Positions 1 to 54,456 of a stretch of DNA of 57,293 bases are shown piece after piece; the first letter of the stretch is position 1, and each line of letters opens with the position of its first letter. The stretch covers positions 1-57,293 of the forward strand of contig JAZDKW010000002.1 in assembly GCA_043802665.1 (NCBI GenBank), written 5' to 3'. The notes under the pieces were generated by a model, which ran no database searches, was not told the DNA's origin, and saw nothing but the letters and a program-made list of their open reading frames with translations. The translations under genes and the position numbers were made by a program. This stretch comes from Patescibacteria group bacterium (GTDB lineage: Bacteria > Patescibacteriota > Kazan-3B-28 > UBA10110).

Positions 1-330
1 TCCCAAATTCAGTTGCCAAAAACTAAAATTGCCCTTTCTGGATTTAACCGCAAACTCCTCCTCGTTCTACTCGTCGTCAGACATGCTCATCCATACCGGG
101 CAATTTTACTATTAGCAATCTGAATTTGCTCAATGGGGTAGAGGACAAAACCACCCAAACTCTGATGGCGGGTTGGGGGAAAACGCTCGAGTTCCAGTGG
201 CTGGCCTAAGGCGTCATTCTGGAGAAGCCGATGGGCATCGGATGACTCCAGAATCGTATAACCAGAAAATCAGGGCTGGGAGCGGAAAACTCTTGACTGG
301 GAGCGGATTTTGTGATATGTTAAAAATATT
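1..330 (+). repeat. Partial copy A of a composite intergenic module (long-range inverted repeats, degenerate CTCCAATG-type tandem units about 129-215, REP-like hairpin 213-256), cut by the window start
   Basis: Inverted arms CTAAAATTGCCC / GGGCAATTTTAC and CAAATTCAGTTGCC / GCAATCTGAATTTG. Units GCTCAATGGGG, CTCTGATGGCGGGTTGGGG and TTCCAGTGGCTGG resemble those at 19207-19320, 47350-47590 and 53058-53165. Confidence 0.6.
293..321 (+). promoter_or_regulatory. sigma70-like promoter of the DGR target gene (TTGACT-17 nt-TATGTT with TGn extended -10)
   Basis: TTGACTGGGAGCGGATTTTGTGATATGTT is nearly identical to the promoter at 53265-53293 (TTGGATGGGAGCGAGTTTTGTAGTATATT). Confidence 0.6.
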
Positions 331-1585: not shown

Positions 1586-1924
1586 CTAGTTTTTTGTCGA
1601 TCGGACCCAACCTCCCAGCATTTTTCCTATTTCGTGCAATTCAAACTCTAATTTGATGTAGCGCTTGTCACTTAAACTGTTGGTGTCAGATGCCAGCCGA
1701 ATTAATAGCTTAATGACTTCGAGCTTACCGTGTGCCAATCCGAGATAATGATATTTCTTGATTGTATCTGAAGTTTGACTGGCTATAATGATGTTCTCGA
1801 TTAAATCTAGAGTGCTGGTTTGTATAATCTGGCCTAAGCTGTATCGTTCAATTTTAGGGAATTTTAACAAGCAATCATGCAAATTATGGTAGAAGTCATA
1901 CAATCGCTGAACGATTGGGATCAA
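1586..1924 (-). CDS. avd: Avd-like accessory variability determinant (four-helix-bundle, 23S rRNA IVS-protein family)
   Basis: 112 aa with family-typical FPKIERYSLGQIIQTSTLDLIENI and LGLAHGKLEVIKLLIRLA...EIGKMLGGWV segments. It starts at TTG and lies on the opposite strand to the TR and RT. Confidence 0.8.
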   Translation of the reverse strand: MIPIVQRLYDFYHNLHDCLLKFPKIERYSLGQIIQTSTLDLIENIIIASQTSDTIKKYHYLGLAHGKLEVIKLLIRLASDTNSLSDKRYIKLEFELHEIGKMLGGWVRSTKN

Positions 1925-2979
1925 CTCAAAATTTCGTTGGGGGGGGGGGTCTTAAAAGAAGAGTTTTTGATCATGTTAGTTTTAGTGAAGTAATATCTCT
2001 GGAAAATCTGTTCTTGGCTTGGCAGGAGTTTAGGAAAGGCAAACGGAGTAAGTTAGATGTTATGACATTTGAATATACTCTGGAAGACAACATCTTTCAA
2101 CTACATCACGATTTAGTCACGGGTGCTTACCGGCATGGGAATTATCAACAGTTTAAAATTACTGATCCAAAAGTAAGGTTGATTAGCAAATCAGGCATCC
2201 GCGATCGCCTGCTCCACCACGCAATTTATCGGGTGCTCTATCCGTGTTTCGACAAAACTTTTATCTATGATAGTTATTCTTGCCGAAACCGCAAAGGCAC
2301 TCATAAATCTTTTATTCAGCTACAGAAATTTGTCAGAAAGATAAGTAAAAATTATACTCAACCCTGTTTTGCTCTAAAGTCGGATATCCGTAAATTCTTT
2401 GACAGCATTGACCATAAGATATTGATGGATTTATTAAAAGAGCGAATCAATGACGAGCAGTTGTTAGATTTGCTTCAGAATATTATTAACAGTTTTGAAC
2501 ACTCACCCAGTAGAGGTATACCATTAGGGAATCTCACCTCGCAACTGTTTGCTAATGTCTATTTAGATCCTTTGGATAAGTTTGCGAAACATTATTTAAA
2601 AGCTAAACATTATCTCCGTTATGCCGATGATTTTATGTTCCTAAGTTCAGATCGAAATGAGTTAATAGGGTATTTGTTAGAGGTTAATCAATTTATCAAA
2701 ACTCAGCTCAAACTTAACATCCATCCTAATAAGATACATCTGAGGAAGTTTAACTGGGGGATTGATTATGTCGGTTATGTGGCCTTACCGCACTACTCAA
2801 TTCCCAGACGGAAAACAGCCCAAAGGATATTTAAGAAAATCAGACAGCTCTTGAAGAAAGGTGAGTTAGATAAATTAGCTAAAGCCATACCCTCATACCT
2901 TGGCTATCTTGGCCACGCCAATGCCTATAAACTTCAGAATGATTTGCTAAAAAGTTGTAGGGTAGGTAAGATTCCTTAA
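1915..2979 (+). CDS. DGR-type reverse transcriptase
   Basis: 354 aa with GIPLGNLTSQLFANVYL (the DGR hallmark [ILV]GxxxSQ) and RYADDFMF (YxDD). The only in-frame start is TTG 1915. An 11-G run at 1939-1949 lies in codons 9-12. Confidence 0.9.
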   Translation: MGSTQNFVGGGGLKRRVFDHVSFSEVISLENLFLAWQEFRKGKRSKLDVMTFEYTLEDNIFQLHHDLVTGAYRHGNYQQFKITDPKVRLISKSGIRDRLLHHAIYRVLYPCFDKTFIYDSYSCRNRKGTHKSFIQLQKFVRKISKNYTQPCFALKSDIRKFFDSIDHKILMDLLKERINDEQLLDLLQNIINSFEHSPSRGIPLGNLTSQLFANVYLDPLDKFAKHYLKAKHYLRYADDFMFLSSDRNELIGYLLEVNQFIKTQLKLNIHPNKIHLRKFNWGIDYVGYVALPHYSIPRRKTAQRIFKKIRQLLKKGELDKLAKAIPSYLGYLGHANAYKLQNDLLKSCRVGKIP

Positions 2980-3926
2980 CCTTTTACTTTTTTGTATTTG
3001 TTGTGAAAATTACGGTGTACTTCTTTGAGTTGGGGGTTGGTGATGTGGGTGTAGATTTGGGTAGTGGTGATAGAAGAATGTCCTAACATCTCTTGAACGG
3101 AGCGGATGTCAGCCCCATTAATTAGCAAGTCAGTTGCAAATGAATGCCTGAGGGTGTGCGGAGTGACTTTTTTTATGAGCCCAGCTAAAGTCGCATATTT
3201 TTGGACGATGCGCTGGATACTACGGGGGGTCAAGGATTCATGCGGGATAGCACCGGCATGAGAAATAAAAGCAGATTCAGCATTATCGGTTCGGCGTTTA
3301 AAATAGGTTTGCACCAATTGAGCGGCTTCCTTAGACAAAAATACTATCCGAGGTTTATCGCCTTTTCCCCGAACCATAAATTCTCCACGCTTAAGATCAA
3401 TGTGTTTGCGCTTTAGGTTAGTCAATTCGGAAACGCGGAGACCAGTAGAGAACAACACGGTTAAAATAGTCAGGTCGCGAAGTGACTCCAATTTATCATC
3501 TCGGGGGACGGCGGCGAAAATACTGCTGAGCTCATCTAACCCAAGAAAATCAATATGTCTTTCGGTAGTTTTGCCCAATTCAATTTTTTCGGCGGGCAAA
3601 GATTTAATATCTTGTTTAGCTAAGAACTTCAAAAAAGCGCGCAAGGCGATAATGTGGTAATTTTGGGTAACGGCTTTAAGTGGGTGGCCTTGATGGTCTT
3701 TGGTCCGGTTAAGATGTAGGCGATATTTACGGATTAAGGGGAGGGTGATGCGAGAAGGAGAAAGCTCGTGAGATTCTTCCGAAGCCGCAAATTCGGCAAA
3801 TCGACTAAGATAATGAGCGTAATTCTCGATAGTTTTAGGACTCCGATTTTTTTCAATCTCTAAGTGATCAAGAAAATCATCGATAAGTACGCTAAGGCTG
3901 CTCATAGTTATATTGTGCGACATCAA
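2976..3926 (-). CDS. Tyrosine site-specific recombinase, XerC/XerD family
   Basis: 316 aa with an N-terminal SAM-like domain and the C-terminal motif HTLRHSFATDLL...LGHSSITTTQIYTH. The 3' end overlaps the RT 3' end by 4 nt (convergent). Confidence 0.85.
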   Translation of the reverse strand: MMSHNITMSSLSVLIDDFLDHLEIEKNRSPKTIENYAHYLSRFAEFAASEESHELSPSRITLPLIRKYRLHLNRTKDHQGHPLKAVTQNYHIIALRAFLKFLAKQDIKSLPAEKIELGKTTERHIDFLGLDELSSIFAAVPRDDKLESLRDLTILTVLFSTGLRVSELTNLKRKHIDLKRGEFMVRGKGDKPRIVFLSKEAAQLVQTYFKRRTDNAESAFISHAGAIPHESLTPRSIQRIVQKYATLAGLIKKVTPHTLRHSFATDLLINGADIRSVQEMLGHSSITTTQIYTHITNPQLKEVHRNFHNKYKKVKG

Positions 3927-6613: not shown

Positions 6614-8017
6614 ATGGTTATTAGAAAGAAGGATCTAAAAACACGAGTGCGGGTAAGTAAGAGTTTGGCGATGGCCAAAGAGCCGGAAGTAACCGCTGTC
6701 GATACGGTGCATATTCTAAAGAAGCGTAGCCGGGTTGGCCGATTTGTAGGTATCGGTTTTGTAATAGCGGTTCTATTGTTATTGGGTTGGTTTGCTACTA
6801 AATTAGCTCTCAGTGGTTGGCAAGTATCCAAAGAATCTCTCTTAAAAGATTTATTTACTTTTGGTACCACGAGCTTGGTGGGAGAAACGCAAGGTCGGGT
6901 GAATATAGTGCTGTTGGGTATACCGGGTGAAGGAGATGATGGGCCAAATCTCACAGACACATTAATGGTTGCCAGTCTTTCAACTCAGCCAGATAAAAAT
7001 AGTTTTCTATTTTCTATCCCGCGGGATCTATACGTCCGGGTGCCGGGTTATGGCAACACTAAGATCAATGCGGTTTATGAAATTGGAAATAATCAGGAAA
7101 CGGGCGGAGGAGGGAAACTGACTTCTCAGATTGCAGGAGAAGTCTTAGGTTTGGATATTCCTTATTACGTAAAATTGGATTTTTCGGGGTTCAGCAAATT
7201 GATTGATGAGTTAGGTGGCGTAACTATAACGGTGGACAAAGATTTGTATGACGATAAGTACCCCAATAAGACTAAGGGTTATGAAATAGTTGATATCAAA
7301 GCCGGGACATACACTATGGATGGAGCTACAGCGTTAAAATATGCTCGTTCCAGGCAATCTACTTCTGATTTTGACCGAGCCTTGCGTCAGCAGAAGGTTT
7401 TGATCGCAGCTAAGGATAAAGCGATGCAGTTGAATTGGCTAAGTAATCCAGCCAAAGTTATTGCAACTATGGATATCCTGGCCGATCATTTCACAACTAA
7501 TATGAAATTGAGTGAGTTGAAACGGATGATTACTTTATTCAAGGATTGGGATGTCAATAAACTTGTGCATAAAGTCTTTGATGACTCGCCAGCCGGATTA
7601 CTCTATGGTACTCGGGTGGATGAGATTTATGTATTGCGTCCAGTAGGTGATGATCTAAAGGTGATCAGCGACTATGTCGCCAAAACTATTTCGAGTGAAA
7701 CTCCGGCAGAAGAGTTAAACCAACCGGTTAATGCAGAGCCACTAAAAGTAGAAGTTTTGAATGGCACTAATATCACTGGTTTGGCTCGGAAGATTGCTAC
7801 CCAGTTGGAAAAAGATAGTTACATAATAGTCAGTGTGGGCAATAATGCGGTTAAAGGATTCACGCGTACGATAGTCTACGATCTTAGTGGAGGTCAAAGA
7901 ATTTGGGAAGTACGCAAATTGGCAGAGAGTCTAAAAGCAGATATTGGGACGGATAAGATAGAAACTACCACGGGAGCATTGGCCAGAATAGTGTTGGGGA
8001 GCGAGGCGTCTAATTAG
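6614..8017 (+). CDS. LytR-CpsA-Psr (LCP) family protein with LytR_C-like C-terminal domain
   Basis: NIVLLGIPGEGDDGPNLTDTLMVASL...IPRDLYV...NTKINAVY. ATG 6614 is preceded by AAGAGG. The ORF track extends upstream to 6551. Confidence 0.8.
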   Translation: MVIRKKDLKTRVRVSKSLAMAKEPEVTAVDTVHILKKRSRVGRFVGIGFVIAVLLLLGWFATKLALSGWQVSKESLLKDLFTFGTTSLVGETQGRVNIVLLGIPGEGDDGPNLTDTLMVASLSTQPDKNSFLFSIPRDLYVRVPGYGNTKINAVYEIGNNQETGGGGKLTSQIAGEVLGLDIPYYVKLDFSGFSKLIDELGGVTITVDKDLYDDKYPNKTKGYEIVDIKAGTYTMDGATALKYARSRQSTSDFDRALRQQKVLIAAKDKAMQLNWLSNPAKVIATMDILADHFTTNMKLSELKRMITLFKDWDVNKLVHKVFDDSPAGLLYGTRVDEIYVLRPVGDDLKVISDYVAKTISSETPAEELNQPVNAEPLKVEVLNGTNITGLARKIATQLEKDSYIIVSVGNNAVKGFTRTIVYDLSGGQRIWEVRKLAESLKADIGTDKIETTTGALARIVLGSEASN

Positions 8018-11214: not shown

Positions 11215-11799
11215 TTATATAGTAATTATATCTTTCAGTTTGTCGTATTTAGCAGAACTGATGCCAGTAACTTTCATCAGGTCTTCTTTGCGCTTGAATG
11301 GGCCCTTTTTTGTGCGATAGTCAATGATGTAACCAGCTGTAACTGGGCCAATGCCAGGCAAGGTATCCAGCTCGGCCGAGCTGGCCGTATTAATGTTCAC
11401 TGGCCCAGCGATCGAGGAGCCGCTTATACTGCTCACGATAGTATTACCAGCAGGAGGAACAGCTCCTTTAATGGGGATATAGATTTTACCATGATTAGCA
11501 AGCAGGGCCGCTCGGTTGATCGTGCGTGCTAACAATTCTGCATCGGCTTGGTCAGTAAGACCGCCAGCCTTTTGGATAGCATCTTCGATAATTTGTCCGC
11601 TGGCTAACTCGTATACTCCCGGCTGAGCAACAGCACCTGCGATATCAATTGTCACTGGTTCGCCGGCGACTACAGTTGGAGTAGTGTCCTGGCTGTGCCG
11701 GATGATAAAATAAGCTCCCACCAAGATGCTTAATGTTAGCACTACCCCCAAAGGAAGGGCAATGCGGTCTAATAATTTTTCATAATCGAAAGTCATCAT
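11215..11799 (-). CDS. comEA: ComEA-family DNA-binding competence protein (SLBB + helix-hairpin-helix)
   Basis: N-terminal TM segment and C-terminal NINTASSAELDTLPGIGPVTAGYIIDYR...GPFKRKEDLMKVTGI. Confidence 0.8.
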   Translation of the reverse strand: MMTFDYEKLLDRIALPLGVVLTLSILVGAYFIIRHSQDTTPTVVAGEPVTIDIAGAVAQPGVYELASGQIIEDAIQKAGGLTDQADAELLARTINRAALLANHGKIYIPIKGAVPPAGNTIVSSISGSSIAGPVNINTASSAELDTLPGIGPVTAGYIIDYRTKKGPFKRKEDLMKVTGISSAKYDKLKDIITI

Positions 11800-18959: not shown

Positions 18960-19395
18960 TTTCTTGCCACTTTTCTGGAAAAGTGGCGTAAAAGCTCCGG
19001 CCAGTCGTCGAGGCTATGAAATGGCAAAAATCTCTGGGTGTTAATGGGCCAAACTCTCCCGCCCCAGTTTAATTTCTTCATCCCAAGCGAAGTCGAGGGA
19101 TCTTTGTCTTTCCCGTCATCCTGAATTTATTTCAGGATCTTAAACTGGGGCGGGATCAAACATGGCCCTCACCCACAGAGATTTTACTCATTTCATAACG
19201 CCTCTCCTCCAATGCCCGGTTAGAAGGGAACAAAAACACCCAAACTCCAATGGCGGGTTGGGAATAGGGAAAAACGCCTCTCTTCCAATGCCCGGGTGAG
19301 GGGGCAAAACCCCAACGGCTCAACCCGTTGAGCCGTTGAAAATCAGTTCTGGGAGCGAATAATTCTTGACAAAAGAGCCGCTTTGGAGTATGTTC
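18960..19395 (+). repeat. Copy B of the composite intergenic module
   Basis: Hairpin GCCACTTTTCTGGAAAAGTGGC (18966-18987). Long-range stem 19004-19030 / 19170-19197 enclosing REP-like hairpins. Three CTCCAATG-type units (19207, 19245, 19282). Hairpin AACGGCTCAA-CCCG-TTGAGCCGTT (19314-19337), then the promoter. Confidence 0.7.
19366..19394 (+). promoter_or_regulatory. sigma70-like promoter (TTGACA-17 nt-TATGTT)
   Basis: Consensus -35 hexamer with 17-nt spacing, about 65 nt upstream of ATG 19458. Confidence 0.6.
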
Positions 19396-19457
19396 AAGTT
19401 AGCACATTAACAATGTGACTACTCAGGCGGTTGTACCGCCAAAAGGAGTGTGCTCTA

Positions 19458-19967
19458 ATGTTTAGAGCCAAAACATCATCAGGAGAATGGACCTTAGCCT
19501 GGAGGCTTTTGGTCGGCAAAAAAAACAGAGCATTTCTGAAAGCGGCGCAGGAAAAAGCCATAATTAGTCGGTATGATCCGGAGGTTTGGGTCACTTTCCA
19601 AAGAACCATCAAAGACGATGAAAGCATCATCGAAAAAACAGTCGTATGGTTTCTCGATTCGTCCAGTTGTGACTTGCAAACATGTGGTTCATTGCTGTCT
19701 TTGAGGCAGTGTGAAGAGGGGGCACCCTTTGCAATTATCAGTAAGGAAAAAATAGGACCACAGAATATCCTGTTGATAACTATTGTGAAGAAGTTTCGCG
19801 AACAGGATATGATTAATCTCGGCTACAAACGAAATGAGGATGGGGAATTCGAAGAAGACAACGCGAGATGTCGTTTCTCTGGTCTCGAGATTAACTCCAT
19901 GGAATGGTTTGAGTGGTTCGAATCCCTTCCAGATGGAGACGAGAGAAAAGAATTTTATCGTGATTAG
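19458..19967 (+). CDS. Hypothetical protein (169 aa)
   Basis: ATG 19458 is preceded by AAGGAG at 8 nt. The ORF track starts at 19431. No recognisable domain. Confidence 0.65.
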   Translation: MFRAKTSSGEWTLAWRLLVGKKNRAFLKAAQEKAIISRYDPEVWVTFQRTIKDDESIIEKTVVWFLDSSSCDLQTCGSLLSLRQCEEGAPFAIISKEKIGPQNILLITIVKKFREQDMINLGYKRNEDGEFEEDNARCRFSGLEINSMEWFEWFESLPDGDERKEFYRD

Positions 19968-22173: not shown

Positions 22174-22287
22174 AGAAGGGCACGGTATTAGGTGCCAAGT
22201 ACCAAGCGGTGGCCCCATTCGGTTCCTCCCCTGCTAATAAGGGGAGGGTAGGAGGGGATTGTTTTTGTGCCGTAAATCAGATAATCC

Positions 22288-22315
22288 TTGACAGGAGCGA
22301 GTTTTTTGATATACT
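22288..22315 (+). promoter_or_regulatory. sigma70-like promoter (TTGACA-16 nt-TATACT)
   Basis: CTTGACAGGAGCGAGTTTTTTGATATACT shares the GGAGCGAGTTTT core with the promoters at 293 and 53265. Confidence 0.55.
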
Positions 22316-22346
22316 GGTGTTAACAAAAAAAAGGAGGACTTTGACA

Positions 22347-22684: not shown

Positions 22685-22756
22685 TACAACAAAATCCTTT
22701 ACTGGGGCTGGTTTTTTGGTATGGTAAGGTTATCTCGTACCTTAAGGAGGAGCTAA

Positions 22757-35183: not shown

Positions 35184-35332
35184 ATAGGAGGAACCTCCGA
35201 GTCGTTATCGTGATATTTATGTCAAGATACGTGATAGAATTTGATTTTTCATTATAGCAGATAGATTTGGTAGGGGGGGATTGAACGGCTCAACGGGTTG
35301 AGCCGTTCAGGGAGCCGTTTAAAAAGGGCTGG

Positions 35333-35361
35333 TTGACAGGGATCGGGCATCATAGTATTAT
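35333..35361 (+). promoter_or_regulatory. sigma70-like promoter (TTGACA-17 nt-TATTAT), preceded by an AACGGCTCAAC-GGG-TTGAGCCGTT hairpin as in module B
   Basis: The consensus -35 hexamer and upstream block are homologous to 19314-19350 and 53195-53250. Confidence 0.55.
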
Positions 35362-35367
35362 CCAAAT

Positions 35368-35507
35368 ATCCTTTGAAGACCGTGGGTATCCACTCCGCTA
35401 CGAGCAGAGGGAGTAAAACCTACCGAGAAGGAACCACTGATTTCACTGATCAGGGATAGATTCCACTGATCAGGGCTGAACAGGGTTCGTCTCGGACGAA
35501 CTTTTTT
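35368..35507 (+). ncRNA. Candidate about 140-nt leader or small RNA ending in an intrinsic terminator (35485-35507)
   Basis: The promoter at 35333 is followed by non-coding sequence. Hairpin GTTCGTC-TCG-GACGAAC plus TTTTTT ends 4 nt before ATG 35512. Confidence 0.35.
35433..35455 (+). repeat. Left inverted repeat flanking the GxxExxY gene
   Basis: ACCACTGATTTCACTGATCAGGG matches the reverse complement of 35901-35923 (ACCACTGATTACACTGATGAACC) at 18 of the first 19 positions. Confidence 0.65.
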
Positions 35508-35511
35508 AAAA

Positions 35512-35877
35512 ATGTATCCAGAAGCAGATATTACATATGCAATTAGGGGGTCGGCATTTGATGTCTACAACCAACTGGGCCCCGGGTTACGGGAAGCGAT
35601 CTATCAGAGAGCCTTGGTAAAAAAGTTGATTGATCAAGGTTGGGTTTGCGAACTGGAAAAAATAGTTGATGTGCCGTTAGACGGTAAAACTCTCATCAAG
35701 CAGAAAATAGATTTGCTTGTTGCGAATAAGGTCTTAGTGGAAGTCAAAGCCAAAGGAAGTTTGTTGCCAATAGACGAAGCGCAGACGATTGCTTATCTAA
35801 AAGTTTCAGGGGTCCAGGTCGGGTTACTTATTAACTTTAGTTCCAGGCCCATCCAAATCAAACGTTTCGTCAATTAA
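35512..35877 (+). CDS. GxxExxY-family protein (PD-(D/E)XK-like)
   Basis: GPGLREAIYQRAL...DLLVANKVLVEVKA...EAQTIAYLKVSGVQVGLLINF. Confidence 0.8.
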   Translation: MYPEADITYAIRGSAFDVYNQLGPGLREAIYQRALVKKLIDQGWVCELEKIVDVPLDGKTLIKQKIDLLVANKVLVEVKAKGSLLPIDEAQTIAYLKVSGVQVGLLINFSSRPIQIKRFVN

Positions 35878-35893
35878 CATTAGTTATCAGTGT

Positions 35894-36027
35894 CATCTGT
35901 GGTTCATCAGTGTAATCAGTGGTAACTAAATCAGTATTTTATCACTGTAATCTTGTTTTGATCTGTGCCATCCGTGGTTTATCAGTGTAATCAGTGGTAA
36001 CTAAATCAGTATTTTATCAGTGTAATC
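35894..36027 (+). repeat. 75-bp tandem direct repeat (1.8 copies) containing the right inverted repeats (35901-35923, 35976-35998)
   Basis: CATCYGTGGTTYATCAGTGTAATCAGTGGTAACTAAATCAGTATTTTATCASTGTAATCT occurs twice and ends at the rplJ start. Confidence 0.8.
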
Positions 36028-36037
36028 TGTGGTTAAG

Positions 36038-37123: not shown

Positions 37124-37284
37124 GGTACTCATTCGTCATGCTGAATTTATTTCAGCATCTCTTGTACTAGTGTTGCTTAATCTAATTAGGAATATCGGTG
37201 GTGGAGATCCTGAAACTAGTTCAGGATGACGGGGGAGGTATAGACAGGATGACGGGGGAGGTATAGAGTTGTAATATTTAATCT

Positions 37285-38385: not shown

Positions 38386-38400
38386 AGATAGCGAGTGCAT

Positions 38401-38434
38401 GCTATGAAAAACAACGGTCGTTGTTTTTCATAGC
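38401..38434. repeat. 34-nt perfect hairpin, copy 1 (GCTATGAAAAACAACG-GT-CGTTGTTTTTCATAGC)
   Basis: Identical apart from the loop to 39697-39730. The shared 5' flank is GCATGCTATG. Confidence 0.85.
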
Positions 38435-38669
38435 CATCCTTGGTTAAGTAATTGGTTAAGTAAATTGTCTCGCCCTCAGTTTGTATTTCGTCATCCTGGC
38501 TTTGTCCAGGATCGTATGATTTTTCCCCTCTGTCATCCCGAGCGTAGTCGAGGGATCTAAAACCGGAACGGTTTTTTTCTATTGCCAGACTGTAAAATTT
38601 CCGCTATATTGATGGCGGCACAATTAAGTTTTAATTTAACTTGTGACTACCTTGACAAGGAGGAATCCA

Positions 38670-39605
38670 GTGAAAATAAAACCCTGGGTAATCATCGTGA
38701 TTGTTTTTGCCATCGTGGAAATTTCCGGATTAATAATGATCCAGGTAAGGCATAACCAAAATGCCAAGCAGGTGCCAGCACCAATCGTTTCAGCAGACGA
38801 CTCATCGCACCAAACCATAAACGGTATCGCCATTATCGACGAAGACCAGTGGGACCAGCGAGTGAAGGATGAGATCGCATCCAGTCCAAATTCTTTAGAA
38901 GATAAATATCTCGGTAAAAGTTCCGAGGAGCTTGATGCTCAATTTCAGGCAGAAAGCGATTGGATTGCCAGTCAGCCGGGTTACGATGATAACATTACCC
39001 CAAATGGTAAAGCAGAAGACCGGGCCTCTGCCCAACAAAGCCCCAACATTGTGAGCGATATCCCCGCAGAAGTGGGTCTTTATATCGACAGTGGTTCTGG
39101 TTGGAAAAAGTTGTCTGTCCCTGAAGGGAATCTAAGTAAGGCTTTTATTCCGGTTGAAGACCCCCTAAAAGGAGCTATACAGGTTATGAGCGAGACTGAG
39201 GATTATACATTGTGTTTCTTTGACGAGGTTACATTAAGTAAATGGAAAGCCCAAGGAATCTCGCCTATAATCTGGGACGGGGTCCAAACGATTAAGATTG
39301 CAACCAGGCTGACGCCCGAAGGTAGAGTCAATGCTCAAAATAATCCCGAATCGCAAAGAGTTATGAATAGTGTGGTTGTCTATCCGTTGTCACGGCAGAC
39401 AGATGAATCTACGGAGAGTTGCCAGTGTGATGGTGATTGCTATGTCTGCTCTATAATAGAAGATATGCTCAATATGGTATCCGACAAATCTGATTACGAT
39501 GTAGGGGGTTATGCTTACGTAGACGTGGGCAGACCAAAAAGTGCCTCAGGATTGTATGTTTTAGGATATTGCGGCTCGTTAATATTGCTTCAACAGTCTC
39601 AATAG
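38670..39605 (+). CDS. Membrane-anchored hypothetical protein (311 aa), distant paralogue of 39872-40402
   Basis: GTG 38670 lies 7 nt after AAGGAGG. One TM helix. The C-terminal DKSDYDVGGYAYVDV...GLYVLGYCGSLILL resembles DKSDFEVGYLYFEFT...ELYCFKDGDQFILF. Confidence 0.7.
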   Translation: MKIKPWVIIVIVFAIVEISGLIMIQVRHNQNAKQVPAPIVSADDSSHQTINGIAIIDEDQWDQRVKDEIASSPNSLEDKYLGKSSEELDAQFQAESDWIASQPGYDDNITPNGKAEDRASAQQSPNIVSDIPAEVGLYIDSGSGWKKLSVPEGNLSKAFIPVEDPLKGAIQVMSETEDYTLCFFDEVTLSKWKAQGISPIIWDGVQTIKIATRLTPEGRVNAQNNPESQRVMNSVVVYPLSRQTDESTESCQCDGDCYVCSIIEDMLNMVSDKSDYDVGGYAYVDVGRPKSASGLYVLGYCGSLILLQQSQ

Positions 39606-39696
39606 TTTATTAATCTCCCTATAGTTCACATCAAGAAGAAGTGATGCAAGAACTTACGGGAGATTTTTTATTTGAAGAAAACTTTGGCGAGAGCAT

Positions 39697-39730
39697 GCTA
39701 TGAAAAACAACGGCCGTTGTTTTTCATAGC
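39697..39730. repeat. 34-nt perfect hairpin, copy 2
   Basis: GCTATGAAAAACAACG-GC-CGTTGTTTTTCATAGC. Confidence 0.85.
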
Positions 39731-47023: not shown

Positions 47024-47184
47024 TCCCAATTCTTATTTCTGTTATCCGACAATTCTTCCGTCATCCTGAACTTGTTTCAGGATCTTGTGCTGTCTTCCCG
47101 ACCTATTCTGTGTCATCCTGAGCGTAGTCGAAGGATCTGTTGCTTTCCTAAGCAACCCAATTTCCTGCTACTTTTCTATAAATT

Positions 47185-47625
47185 CTTTTGTTACCTTTCT
47201 AGAAAGGTAACACCAAAGTCCCAGCCCGTTCGTCGGGACTATGTAATGGATGAATTTCTGGGCGCTCTCGCTGAACTCGGCCGATAACACATCGGCCTCA
47301 AACATGCAGCTTCGCCCACAGAAATTCATCTCATTACATAACATCCCTCCTCCAAGGGCTGGAGCTAAAAACTAAAAGATTCGAGCTCCAATGCCCGGTT
47401 TTAGGGAACAGAAAAGACGCTCAGACTCCACTGGCGGGTTAGGGGAATAAACGCTCGGGCTCCAAGGGCTGGAGCTAAAAACTAAAAGACTCGAGCTCCA
47501 ATGCTCGGTGTAGGGGAAGGGAACAAAATCGCTCAAACTCCAATGGCGGGGGTTAAAGGACAGAGAAATGCTCAGGCTTCGATGGTTAGAGTAAAATCAA
47601 TTATTTTTTGCTGGTATGATGTATT
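47185..47625 (+). repeat. Copy C of the composite intergenic module
   Basis: Hairpin GTTACCTTTCTAGAAAGGTAAC (47190-47211). Long-range stem 47240-47264 / 47313-47340. Seven CTCCAATG-type units (47350-47590) with a 110-bp higher-order repeat. Extended -10 TGGTATGAT (47612-47620). Confidence 0.7.
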
Positions 47626-52871: not shown

Positions 52872-52904
52872 ATTTTTGATACTCTTGCAGAGTAACCAGA
52901 ATTG

Positions 52905-53295
52905 TTTTTGCCACTTTTCTAGAAAAGTGGCGTAAAAGTCCCAGCCCGTCGTCCTCGCTATTCGCCTAATAAAATTGCCTTACTGCTTTCGCCAAACTCG
53001 CTAATGCTCGGACAGTTGGCTTCGCAACAGCAATTTTATTGGCTCATCACGCTCGGACTCCAAGGGCTGGCAGAAAAACCAAGACGCCTCTCCTCCAATG
53101 GCCGGCTGAAAAAGAAACGCTCGAACTCCAATGCCCGGGTGAGGGGGAAAAACCCCAACGGCGAAGGACAAACCCGAAAAAAGAACCAAGAATGAACGGC
53201 TCAGGGGGTTGCCTGCCCGGCCAGGGAGCCGTTGAAAATTAGCTCTGGTTGGACAAAAATAACCTTGGATGGGAGCGAGTTTTGTAGTATATTGA
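52905..53295 (+). repeat. Copy D of the composite intergenic module
   Basis: Hairpin GCCACTTTTCTAGAAAAGTGGC (52910-52931). Inverted arms GCCTAATAAAATTGC / GCAATTTTATTGGC. Three CTCCAATG-type units (53058, 53093, 53126). CAGGGAGCCGTTGAAAAT block, then the promoter. Confidence 0.7.
53265..53293 (+). promoter_or_regulatory. sigma70-like promoter (TTGGAT-17 nt-TATATT), homologous to 293-321
   Basis: TTGGATGGGAGCGAGTTTTGTAGTATATT. Confidence 0.55.
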
Positions 53296-53353
53296 TATTA
53301 TCAAGGAATCACTTTGAAATCTCAAAAAATTTTCATGAAAGAGGTGCACAGCT

Positions 53354-53962
53354 ATGATTGTTGCAGGTTCTATTATGAACTCGGGGGTATGGATCAAACG
53401 CGAGACAGCGGCCATGGAGAAGCTTGGCATCATCGGACAGGAAACGGCAATCGCCAAGGCCGCTAATCTACCCAATGGTGTGAACCACTGCTTTATCCCG
53501 TCCGGTCTCGACCGCAAGAGGCTGATCAAACTCGCAGGTGAGAGTGGTGTTAAAGTTAAATTCAGTTCGTCGCCAAACCGCGATGGCGAGGGAATCTTGA
53601 CCGAAGCCGGCATACTTGAGTGCGACCTTTCGGCCATCATGACCCTTAGGGGCCCTGATCGCTGGCCGTTTAATTTGAATGCCGACGAGCACCTGCTTTG
53701 GGCTAAAGATCAGGGTGGAGATGGCTTGACTTCAGCCGAGGAAGCCATCTATCTCCTCATCAGGGCCTACATGGCATTCGGGAAAATCCCCTTTATGGAT
53801 AAATGGATCCGATGCCGGAACTACTGCGGTTCTGGTTCTGGCTCTCAGTTGCTGGTCGGGTTCTGGGCTGGTTCTGGTCTGCGCGTTCGCTACGGCCAAG
53901 GTGACCACCATTCTTCGGACTATGGTGCCGTTGCTCGGAAGTTTACGCCCCTTGTTGTTTGA
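53354..53962 (+). CDS. Paralogue of the DGR target protein with VR-like C-terminus
   Basis: 202 aa, alignable to 398-1168 over the C-terminal 160 aa. The C-terminal WIRCRNYCGSGSGSQLLVGFWAGSGLRVRYGQGDHHSSDYGAVARKF corresponds to the VR/TR segment. SD AGAGG precedes the ATG. Confidence 0.8.
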   Translation: MIVAGSIMNSGVWIKRETAAMEKLGIIGQETAIAKAANLPNGVNHCFIPSGLDRKRLIKLAGESGVKVKFSSSPNRDGEGILTEAGILECDLSAIMTLRGPDRWPFNLNADEHLLWAKDQGGDGLTSAEEAIYLLIRAYMAFGKIPFMDKWIRCRNYCGSGSGSQLLVGFWAGSGLRVRYGQGDHHSSDYGAVARKFTPLVV

Positions 53963-54002
53963 TTTTTATTCCTTTTGATTGTTTGTTCTCGAACTCATAC
54001 AC

Positions 54003-54027
54003 CCCGATATTACATCGGGGTTTTTTC
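54003..54027 (+). terminator. Intrinsic terminator
   Basis: CCCCGAT-ATTAC-ATCGGGG followed by TTTTTT. Confidence 0.8.
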
Positions 54028-54456
54028 ATATGTAAGAGTTGTCATCCTCTGGCTTGACCAGAGGATCCAGACAAAAACAAAAAAAGAAATGTTTTTATCT
54101 CTCTGGATTCCCGAATCCATCCTGCGTCTAATCTCTTCCCAAAATAGGATATTTATCCTCTTTGGGAAATAGATAAGACTACGGAGGACTATCGTAGCTC
54201 CGATTATCATTAGGTAATTTGGGTCGGGAATGACAGGAAAGGAAAAACTTTCCGCCGGAAGGGAATGCAGCCAGGCCGAGATGACAATCGGAGAAAAACT
54301 TTTTGGGCTGGGGGCGATTTTTTATAGACCTTCTTGGCAACTGGGGACGGTGTGATACGTTTAGTTTGCACTGACTAAAGTGCTTCAGGGGGTGGAGTCG
54401 TTTTGTAGTCAGCGAACAAAATTATCGGAAGTCTTTAATACACTTTAGGAGGTGGT

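Follow-up and report, generated by a model that had tools for sequence, protein, structure and literature searches.

Repetitive extragenic palindromic (REP) sequences, bacterial interspersed mosaic elements (BIME), BOX elements and enterobacterial repetitive intergenic consensus (ERIC) sequences act as 3'-end barriers, processing sites or insulators. The element described here behaves like these repeats yet fails the defining features of each, as well as those of miniature inverted-repeat transposable elements (MITEs), integron attC sites, TIGR arrays (tandem interspaced guide RNA) and ToxI repeats. It was found in a 57,293-nucleotide (nt) stretch of chromosomal DNA (contig JAZDKW010000002.1 of assembly GCA_043802665.1; the whole stretch is referred to as the window) from a bacterium of the Patescibacteria, or candidate phyla radiation (CPR), with genes for PBP1A, trigger factor, ClpP, HisRS, SecDF, FtsA/FtsZ, ribosomal proteins and three tRNAs, and an FtsZ that shares 83% identity with that of 'candidate division Kazan bacterium RBG_13_50_9'. 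The core of the element belongs to a lineage-specific family of hairpin-rich non-coding repeats in the ultra-small Kazan-group Patescibacteria, a family for which no description was found in Rfam or the searchable literature. With moderate confidence, and judging from sequence comparison, we regard it as a new REP/BIME/BOX-like structured repeat that would combine a 3'-tail structure with copying at the DNA level.

Fold and Covariation of the Core

A sequence-only reading of the window had reported four homologous intergenic blocks, here called copies A to D, in which a perfect hairpin, a long-range stem, tandem units, an optional second hairpin, a promoter and a small open reading frame (ORF) follow one another. 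All four blocks are present on the + strand in this order, with the parts where they had been described (Table 1), and their homology and order are not low-complexity noise. The 22-nt perfect hairpin at the head of the blocks, P0, reads GCCACTTTTCTRGAAAAGTGGC in copies B and D and was also found as the GTTACC..GGTAAC variant in copy C; in a scan of the window it occurs only in the blocks, with none expected by chance. The long-range stems of copies B and C are likewise real and represent helix P2 of the fold described below, the optional hairpin AACGGCTCAA..TTGAGCCGTT was recovered in copy B and as a split variant in copy D, and the unit motif CTCCAATGSCSGG (up to two mismatches) has 20 matches versus 4.35 expected, 13 of which, all on the + strand, lie in the four blocks. 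The proposed resemblance of A to D did not hold up, since A and D have only a 42-nt stretch (74%) in common, located in the promoter region, and B and D have more patches in common than A and D. The sequence that the four blocks have in common is limited to patches of 15-36 nt, so that their homology is architectural.

This architecture, on which single-sequence folds agree, is a core of 150-260 nt that begins with P0, a hairpin of 9-10 base pairs (bp), continues with a linker of 7-9 nt, GTAAAAG(CT), and ends in one compound hairpin. The latter is closed by P1 (7 bp, CCNNNCA with TGNNNGG), followed by an internal loop with GTC opposite TCCAA, by P1b with 8 positions, by P2 (15-28 bp, with a conserved AAAAT/ATTTT tract), and then by an asymmetric loop, P3 and often P4, in which inserted REP hairpins are tolerated. 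Relatives of the element were collected by scanning for P0 plus linker, which gave 3 loci in two metagenome-assembled genomes of Patescibacteria among species-representative genomes, 24 further loci in metagenomes and 0 matches in viral contigs. The order of parts was identical in every match from these relatives, whose loci carry the prefix L in the following.

A covariance model built from the relatives recovered the window copies D, C and B with 163.6 bits (at 52910), 72.3 bits (at 47190) and 77.9 bits (at 18966), respectively, corresponding to E-values of 1e-16 to 1e-39, and no further full copy was found in the window with the filters off. The 30 full copies obtained comprise 3 window copies and 27 from 22 related loci. 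RNAalifold predicted 40 pairs from 19 copies, with compensatory change in 23 of them, and in the 30-copy alignment, which was fitted to the model, double changes occur in 32 of the 40 pairs; identical pairs emerged from a MAFFT alignment and from independent single-sequence folds. In this alignment 95.2% of the cells pair, compared to 76.5% after shuffling, and the covariation score of 0.474 stands against 0.137 for shuffled alignments (0 of 500 reached it) and at most 0.10 when partners were slid by 1-3 columns. The P1 arms alone vary together between copies as CCCGCCA/TGGCGGG, CCGACCA/TGGTCGG, CCAGCCC/GGGCTGG, CCCGTCA/TGACGGG, CCGGACA/TGTCCGG and CCGGGCA/TGCCCGG. The structure of the core is under constraint. 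A search of the whole window against Rfam 15 at gathering score returned three tRNAs only, permissive scans of copies B and D gave best E-values of 0.72 and 1.7 for unrelated families far below their cut-offs, and no description of the element was found in the literature on CPR repeats, attC sites and REP sequences.

Distant variants of P0 (L029 15071-15098, L031 15164-15193, L033 14516-14545) carry an A.C mismatch at the same stem position on the + strand, equivalent to G.T on the - strand, and a further variant at L033 11097 has a bulged A there; this position is possibly a recognition feature. Interpretation of P0 as a chromosomal dif site beside an Xer gene was rejected because GC skew is positive upstream of the L017 copy and throughout the window, and because P0 is multi-copy. 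An operator for a dimeric protein is unlikely as well, given that arm variants covary within one genome and that the loops of the distant variants are non-palindromic.

Tandem Units and Solo Hairpins

The sequence-only reading had listed the tandem units as one part of the module. Our analysis shows that 'ACGCTC-NNN-CTCCAATG-NNN-GG + A/G-rich tail' consists of the 3' strands of P1b and P1 with the loop TCCAA between them. The first CTCCAATG unit closes the element to which it belongs, and in 23 of 28 cases it is the perfect complement of the P1 5' arm of that element. Among the extra units, 16 of 30 fit the 5' arm of some other family member (control: mean 7.2, maximum 14 of 30 in 2000 draws) and only one of 30 fits its own arm, and because they match the arms of others and not their own they look like leftovers or local duplicates of 3' ends that stem from other family members. 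For the same reason a genomic-island model, in which the element serves as a target gene that has its 3' end replaced, as tRNA genes do, was rejected.

Several loci give examples. Copy C contains a 110-nt tandem duplication of a three-unit block. Upstream of the Xer gene, where L018 and L027 are syntenic, the L018 core has the arm CCCGCCA and is followed by a unit with AAAC and TGGCGGG and by a second unit (TCCC..), and in L027 both of these units come after another core (CCCGTCA) and its unit, so that units 1-2 of L018 equal units 2-3 of L027. In addition, solo P0-like hairpins (..ACTCTTTCAAAAGAGTAAC CAGAATT) closely precede P0 in copy D, L013, L020 and L021, and the same variant heads the full copy at L003 3683-3837.

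A separate 14-nt palindrome, CCGCCAGCTGGCGG, is present at the same P2/P1b junction inside three independent cores (L002 at about 240-255, L006 and L022) and elsewhere in L001 (about 735-750), L003 (about 6665-6680) and L005, and may be a tiny mobile palindrome.

Position at Gene Ends

The core starts 0-170 nt after the stop codon of the upstream gene. Several copies start right at this codon, as in L003, L029 and L034, where the element begins at the TAG that ends the ribonucleotide reductase (RNR) gene; behind FtsZ the distance to the stop is 1 nt in L037/L038 and 5 nt in L033. In L034 and L033 only 13-15 nt separate the element from the ORF behind it, so that it is intercistronic and must be transcribed there. 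Copy C likewise lies between HisRS and an ORF, two genes that in seven relatives overlap or are 5-12 nt apart. No + strand promoter precedes P0 in copies B, C or D, and terminator-like sites on the + strand were not predicted in B and D, with four predicted in C, whose strand was not read against the sequence. A terminator-like hairpin with a T-run does exist in this lineage, at 54000-54027 of the window and behind FtsZ in L028. From this arrangement we infer that the element is transcribed together with the upstream gene.

The sequence-only reading had tied the module to small accessory ORFs downstream. However, the downstream neighbours of the 30 copies are unrelated and include targets of a diversity-generating retroelement (DGR), tRNAs (L002, L025), RNase P RNA (L006), TsaD (L013), RNR (L022), NrdH-like, YajQ-like and NUDIX genes or a convergent gene, and the constant relation is that to the upstream gene.

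Gain, Loss and Mosaicism among Relatives

Eleven syntenic loci were obtained via FtsZ homologues and scanned with the covariance model. The HisRS/ORF105 site is filled in the window and L037 and empty in L028, L029, L030 and L033-L036; the site downstream of FtsZ is filled in the window, L001, L022, L003, L037/38 and L033 and empty in L028, L031, L034, L029, L035 and L036; and the site downstream of RNR is filled in L003, L029, L031, L033, L034 and L036 and empty in L035. In L028, L031 and L034 the FtsZ-downstream site holds a hairpin with a T-run that looks like an intrinsic terminator. No target-site duplication was seen when filled and empty HisRS sites were compared, divergence blurring the junction. 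PBP1A is followed by a copy both in the window and in L010 (75% amino acid identity), the two copies being of different subtypes.

Moreover, the copies are mosaics of one another. L001a combines P1/P1b arms of the L017 type with a P2 of the type of copy D and L002, and copy B, L013 and L020 have outer helices in common and completely different P3/P4. L001 carries three tandem copies. In both copies of L033, TTCGAA replaces the TCCAA of the window's clade, a concerted change within the genome that suggests a co-evolving partner.

Both ends of the window also relate to the element: it starts inside copy A, and its other end lies 8 nt short of the RNR stop, the very position of a copy in L003, L029 and L034. 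Since both ends fall at a copy site they are probably assembly breaks, and these repeats appear to break assemblies.

Interpretation and Alternative Explanations

As a REP/BIME/BOX-like repeat the element would form the tail of the mRNA transcribed from the upstream gene, and its stable hairpins would act there as a 3'-end barrier, a processing site or an insulator. At the DNA level, copies would arise and disappear, undergo tandem duplication and recombine with one another, and a hypothetical genome-specific partner, a protein or enzyme, would probably recognise the conserved unpaired junctions.

Several observations weigh against this explanation. No U-tract follows any helix, and the element is not a classical intrinsic terminator. 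The helix cells comprise 1145 Watson-Crick, 11 G.T and 14 A.C combinations, and the changes include about 10 one-sided versus 223 two-sided ones, many pair changes being flips between CG and GC. Selected RNA folds contain several per cent of G.U pairs and far fewer A.C pairs. The near-pure Watson-Crick pattern, with its scarcity of wobble pairs, suggests that pairing is kept by selection at the DNA level or that copying is frequent. Furthermore, both strands fold equally well as DNA (z-scores -3.4 and -4.1), P0 of the main type is palindromic through its centre like a DNA palindrome, and among the window ORFs no transposase, HUH enzyme or dedicated integrase was found, the sole recombinase being a generic Xer. 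In turn, the fact that elements lie in sense orientation at gene ends or between cistrons and that their unpaired junctions are conserved speaks against a purely DNA role.

Tentatively, the core may, instead of being a passive REP-like tail, represent a new class of nucleic-acid element that a dedicated co-evolving partner recognises by shape and that acts either as a recombination or insertion site in folded single-stranded DNA (ssDNA) or as a multi-copy structured RNA. If so, the stretches of 3-4 bp that vary in P1 and P1b would serve as self-matching labels that pair the two ends of an element, and with the ssDNA option the site would organise gene gain beside core genes in reduced CPR genomes.

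The first of these options, in which the compound hairpin is a folded ssDNA site analogous to integron attC or CTX phage attP, recognised by its shape by a tyrosine recombinase or HUH enzyme, and in which the extra units and solo P0 hairpins are scars left where strand exchange or insertion took place repeatedly, appears unlikely to us. It would account for pairing that is Watson-Crick only, with no wobble bias, for a shape kept while the sequence varies, and for an attC-like geometry of a 7-bp helix, a 3/5-nt unpaired spacer, an 8-bp helix and a variable terminal structure. It also agrees with the gain and loss of copies between relatives, with the variable genes just downstream at some sites (a DGR target is present in the window and absent in L022, and the DGR itself is present in the window and L018 and absent in L027), and with an Xer-like recombinase that in three genomes lies no more than 3 kb from copy A, the Xer gene adjoining an element copy in L018 and L027 too. 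However, crossover within the site would give mismatched hybrids, and the first units match their own 5' arms in the large majority of copies (23 of 28). The recombinase is a generic Xer that matches XerC/XerD/XerA models and fails the integron-integrase model (131 bits against the TIGR02249 cut-off of 265), cassette arrays are absent, the copies being separated by housekeeping genes, and the gap between FtsZ and RNR is variable even without an element. The orientation of the copies would also fit an ssDNA site: GC skew is positive along the whole window, so that the + strand is the G-rich strand of one replichore, and the G-rich strand, which is the lagging-strand template, coincides with the top strand of the element at 20 of 25 loci and for 4 of 4 window copies, but this orientation is confounded with gene direction.

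The other option, a family of stand-alone structured non-coding RNA genes that are multi-copy and act in trans, e.g., as the RNA part of a ribonucleoprotein, and not as a passive 3' tail, we consider quite improbable. Five covarying helices with conserved unpaired junctions (GTAAAAG, GTC, TCCAA and the P2/P3 loops), junction motifs that change together within a genome and the persistence of the RNR-downstream copy across genomes with 78-90% FtsZ identity are what such a family would show, and in view of the lack of an Rfam match it would be a new class. On the other hand, the copies have no predicted promoter or terminator of their own (apart from the four sites in copy C mentioned above), the element abuts the stop codon in L003, L029 and L034, G.U pairs are nearly absent, every helix varies among the copies of a given genome, an odd feature if they shared a single function in trans, and copies are absent from orthologous sites in close relatives.

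It is highly improbable that the blocks are, as had been suggested, a composite promoter-carrying mobile module or shared regulatory region driving small accessory ORFs including DGR targets, a view that the comparative data already contradict. A small ORF does follow all four window copies, two of these ORFs being DGR-target paralogues with 53% identity, and copies A, B and D have similar promoter blocks; ORF 47650 behind copy C has no consensus promoter, and this copy lies inside what is an operon in relatives. The proximal fragment reported at 35333 is indeed a hairpin-promoter block, in which the AACGGCTCAA/TTGAGCCGTT hairpin is joined to a promoter of the form GAAAAT..CTGGGAGCGRA..TTGACA-17-TATGTT, yet it stands alone without a core, as does another block upstream of L029 ORF226, and many cores lack the block. 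Because it is found without the core, the block belongs to the downstream gene, and downstream genes, as stated above, are unrelated and extend to tRNAs, RNase P RNA and convergent genes. What lies beside the core, namely the REP hairpins, the AACGGCTCAA hairpin and the promoter, is not part of it. Finally, it is barely credible that the approximately 36-nt units form a guide-RNA or antitoxin-RNA array of the TIGR or type III ToxI kind, since, for all their period of 33-42 nt, their location upstream of small ORFs and the presence of TIGR systems in CPR (PMC12045711), each degenerate unit has one conserved motif, its 3-4-nt variable parts pair with the core, the downstream ORFs differ from copy to copy and the window encodes no Nop-domain protein.

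The element is of interest beyond its classification. Kazan/CPR genomes are very small, with little room for repeats. Roughly every 12-14 kb there is a site taken up by the element and its debris, and the element persists behind the same core genes (RNR, FtsZ, PBP1A) across species, even inserted inside an operon; such density and persistence in a tiny genome point to a real cost or benefit. With 32 compensatory pairs of 40 and almost no wobble, it represents a good test system for RNA selection versus ssDNA selection versus copying. Its remnants, moreover, could be mistaken for guide-RNA-like arrays.

Features of the Window and Its Surroundings

Table 1. Positions of the element copies, their parts and adjoining features in the window.
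Feature	Position	Strand	Details
Copy A core, 5' end cut inside P2 by window start	1-128	+	P2 arms ~5-35 and ~93-128; interior CAAACTCC..CGTCAGACATG resembles copy L008
Copy A, three degenerate 3'-strand units	128-204	+	GCTCAATGGGG ~128-140; CTCTGATGGCGGG 160-172; GTTCCAGTGGCTGG 191-204
Copy A REP-type hairpin	209-263	+	GGCGTCATTCTGGAG..CTCCAGAATCGTATAA; same type directly upstream of P0 in L001, L024
Promoter block of DGR target gene 398-1168, outside core	266-321	+	CTGGGAGCGGA twice (276-286, 297-307); TTGACT 293-298; TATGTT 316-321
DGR reverse transcriptase	1915-2979		
Xer-like (XerC/XerD/XerA models) tyrosine recombinase	2976-3926	-	
Copy B P0	18966-18987	+	Linker GTAAAAGCT 18988-18996
Copy B 5' strands	18997-19014	+	P1 18997-19003 CCGGCCA; loop GTC; P1b 19007-19014
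Copy B P2	19015-19041 with 19170-19197	+	
Copy B P3	19046-19050 with 19164-19168	+	
Copy B P4	19057-19072 with 19140-19155	+	
Copy B P4 loop insert	19073-19141	+	Two REP-type hairpins
Copy B unit 1	19198-19219	+	3' strands of P1b 19200-19207 and P1 19213-19219, flanking TCCAA; one C.C mismatch with 5' arm
Copy B, two extra units	19220-19306	+	Motifs 19245-19257, 19283-19295
Hairpin AACGGCTCAA/TTGAGCCGTT and promoter of ORF 19458-19967, outside core	19314-19394	+	Hairpin 19314-19337; CTGGGAGCGAA 19349-19359; TTGACA 19366-19371; TATGTT 19389-19394
Core-less hairpin GAACGGCTCAACGGGTTGAGCCGTTC and TTGACA promoter	35283-35358	+	Upstream of GxxExxY gene 35512-35877
Copy C full core	47190-47368	+	P0 variant GTTACCTTTCTAGAAAGGTAAC 47190-47211; P1 47221-47227 with 47356-47362; P2 47239-47265 with 47313-47340
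Copy C, five or six extra units	47369-47590	+	Motifs 47386, 47426, 47460, 47496, 47538, degenerate ~47578
Copy D solo P0-like hairpin	52886-52904	+	GATACTCTTGCAGAGTAAC + CAGAATT; just upstream of P0
Copy D full core	52910-53076	+	P0 52910-52931; P1 52941-52947/53064-53070; P1b 52951-52958/53051-53058; P2 52964-52978/53030-53043
Copy D, two extra units	53084-53149	+	Motifs 53093-53105, 53126-53138
Split hairpin and promoter of DGR target gene 53354-53962, outside core	53195-53293	+	AACGGCTC..GAGCCGTT 53195-53233; TTGGAT 53265-53270; TATATT 53288-53293

REP-type hairpins (GTCATYC..GRATC) surround the elements, two of them within the P4 loop of copy B. They belong to two short intergenic families, GTCATCCTGAAyTTrTTTCAGGATC and GTCATCCyGAGCGwAGTCGArGGATC, with members at 19073-19141, 37133-37161, 38528-38558, 47058-47138 and 54040-54075 of the window and at many loci. 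In the promoters of the lineage the motif CTGGGAGCGRA / GGGCTGGGRGCG recurs upstream of the -35 box and within the spacer (window 276-307, 19349-19359, 22281-22326, 22691-22736, 53259-53304 and 54295-54320; L017, L018, L021, L023 and L011) and is possibly a site for a regulator or an alternative sigma factor.

The Xer gene is convergent with the DGR reverse transcriptase gene, with a 4-nt overlap. A 123-nt template-like repeat of the DGR at 1461-1583 shares 80% identity with 1032-1154, the end of ORF 398-1168, and 63% with 53826-53948, the end of ORF 53354-53962. The DGR is found at the same place in L018 and L017, and L027 is without it.

Further repeats were noted in the window. Two tandem 68-nt copies (93% identity, 75-nt spacing, rich in ATCAGTG) occupy 35886-36028 between the GxxExxY gene and that of ribosomal protein L10, with similar short motifs at 35430-35480, and a hairpin-containing 44-nt repeat (95% identity) at 38391-38434 and 39687-39730 flanks ORF 38643-39605, for which no family match was obtained. 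In L031, a tandem array of about five 33-nt units (GGGTTTCCCTCCGTTCGTCGGGACCTGGTACAGC) at 11490-11690 upstream of nrdR is unrelated to the core units. An IS110-family transposase (Transposase_20) lies between the HIT and S21 genes of one Kazan genome (L031/L032 5058-6092); a link of the element to this transposase was rejected, there being no sequence in common with its flanks.

Comparison with Known Systems

TIGR arrays consist of two alternating 8-12-nt repeats with 9-nt spacers and are accompanied by a Nop-domain Tas protein (Faure et al., 2025; PMC12045711). The element resembles them in a tandem period of about 36 nt and in its occurrence in CPR, but the assignment was rejected because the dual repeat with 9-nt spacers is missing and no Tas/Nop-domain ORF was found in the window. 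In type III toxin-antitoxin systems, near-identical tandem repeats are followed by a terminator and the gene of a ToxN-type endoribonuclease; a ToxI-like array was likewise rejected, given that the units of the element are degenerate and that the downstream ORFs are mutually unrelated, with no Pfam or NCBIfam match. Unlike a MITE, the element has ends (P0 and the A/G-rich tail) that are not inverted repeats, and its inverted arms, P1 and P1b, differ between copies.

The likeness to integron attC sites extends to a conserved shape of similar geometry, mostly Watson-Crick pairing and copies in one orientation. In contrast to attC, the element lacks the RYYYAAC...GTTRRRY boxes, its P1 arms being CCNNNCA / TGNNNGG, and it is longer, with P0 as an extra 5' hairpin; neither an integron integrase nor a cassette array was found, the only candidate in the window being the Xer-type recombinase discussed above. 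BOX elements of Streptococcus pneumoniae (boxA - boxB(n) - boxC) share with it a fixed modular order, a variable number of a unit of about 40 nt, an intergenic location and stable predicted folds, and, similar to the element, they encode no protein. The sequences are, however, unrelated, and the unit of our element is the 3' strand of its own closing helices, the first unit being matched to a variable 5' arm.

REP units are imperfect 20-40-nt palindromes with a GTAG head, whereas the element is a five-helix fold of 150-260 nt without such a head, and the units of BIME alternate in orientation, whereas its repeated units are direct half-helices. REP sequences also have a cognate REP-associated tyrosine transposase (RAYT), a Y1 HUH enzyme, and no RAYT was detected among the window ORFs by Pfam scan or among the precomputed Pfam domains of called genes in L028-L038. 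In other respects the element is similar to REP/BIME/REPIN sequences: it is extragenic or intercistronic, located at gene 3' ends and multi-copy (4 copies in 57 kb and 30 full copies overall), and it forms hairpin mosaics of few motif types with variable unit number, in which complementarity is kept by compensated changes and sequence classes are genome-specific. Like these repeats, which are co-transcribed with the upstream gene, the element is, as we infer from its position, probably part of the transcript of the gene that it follows.

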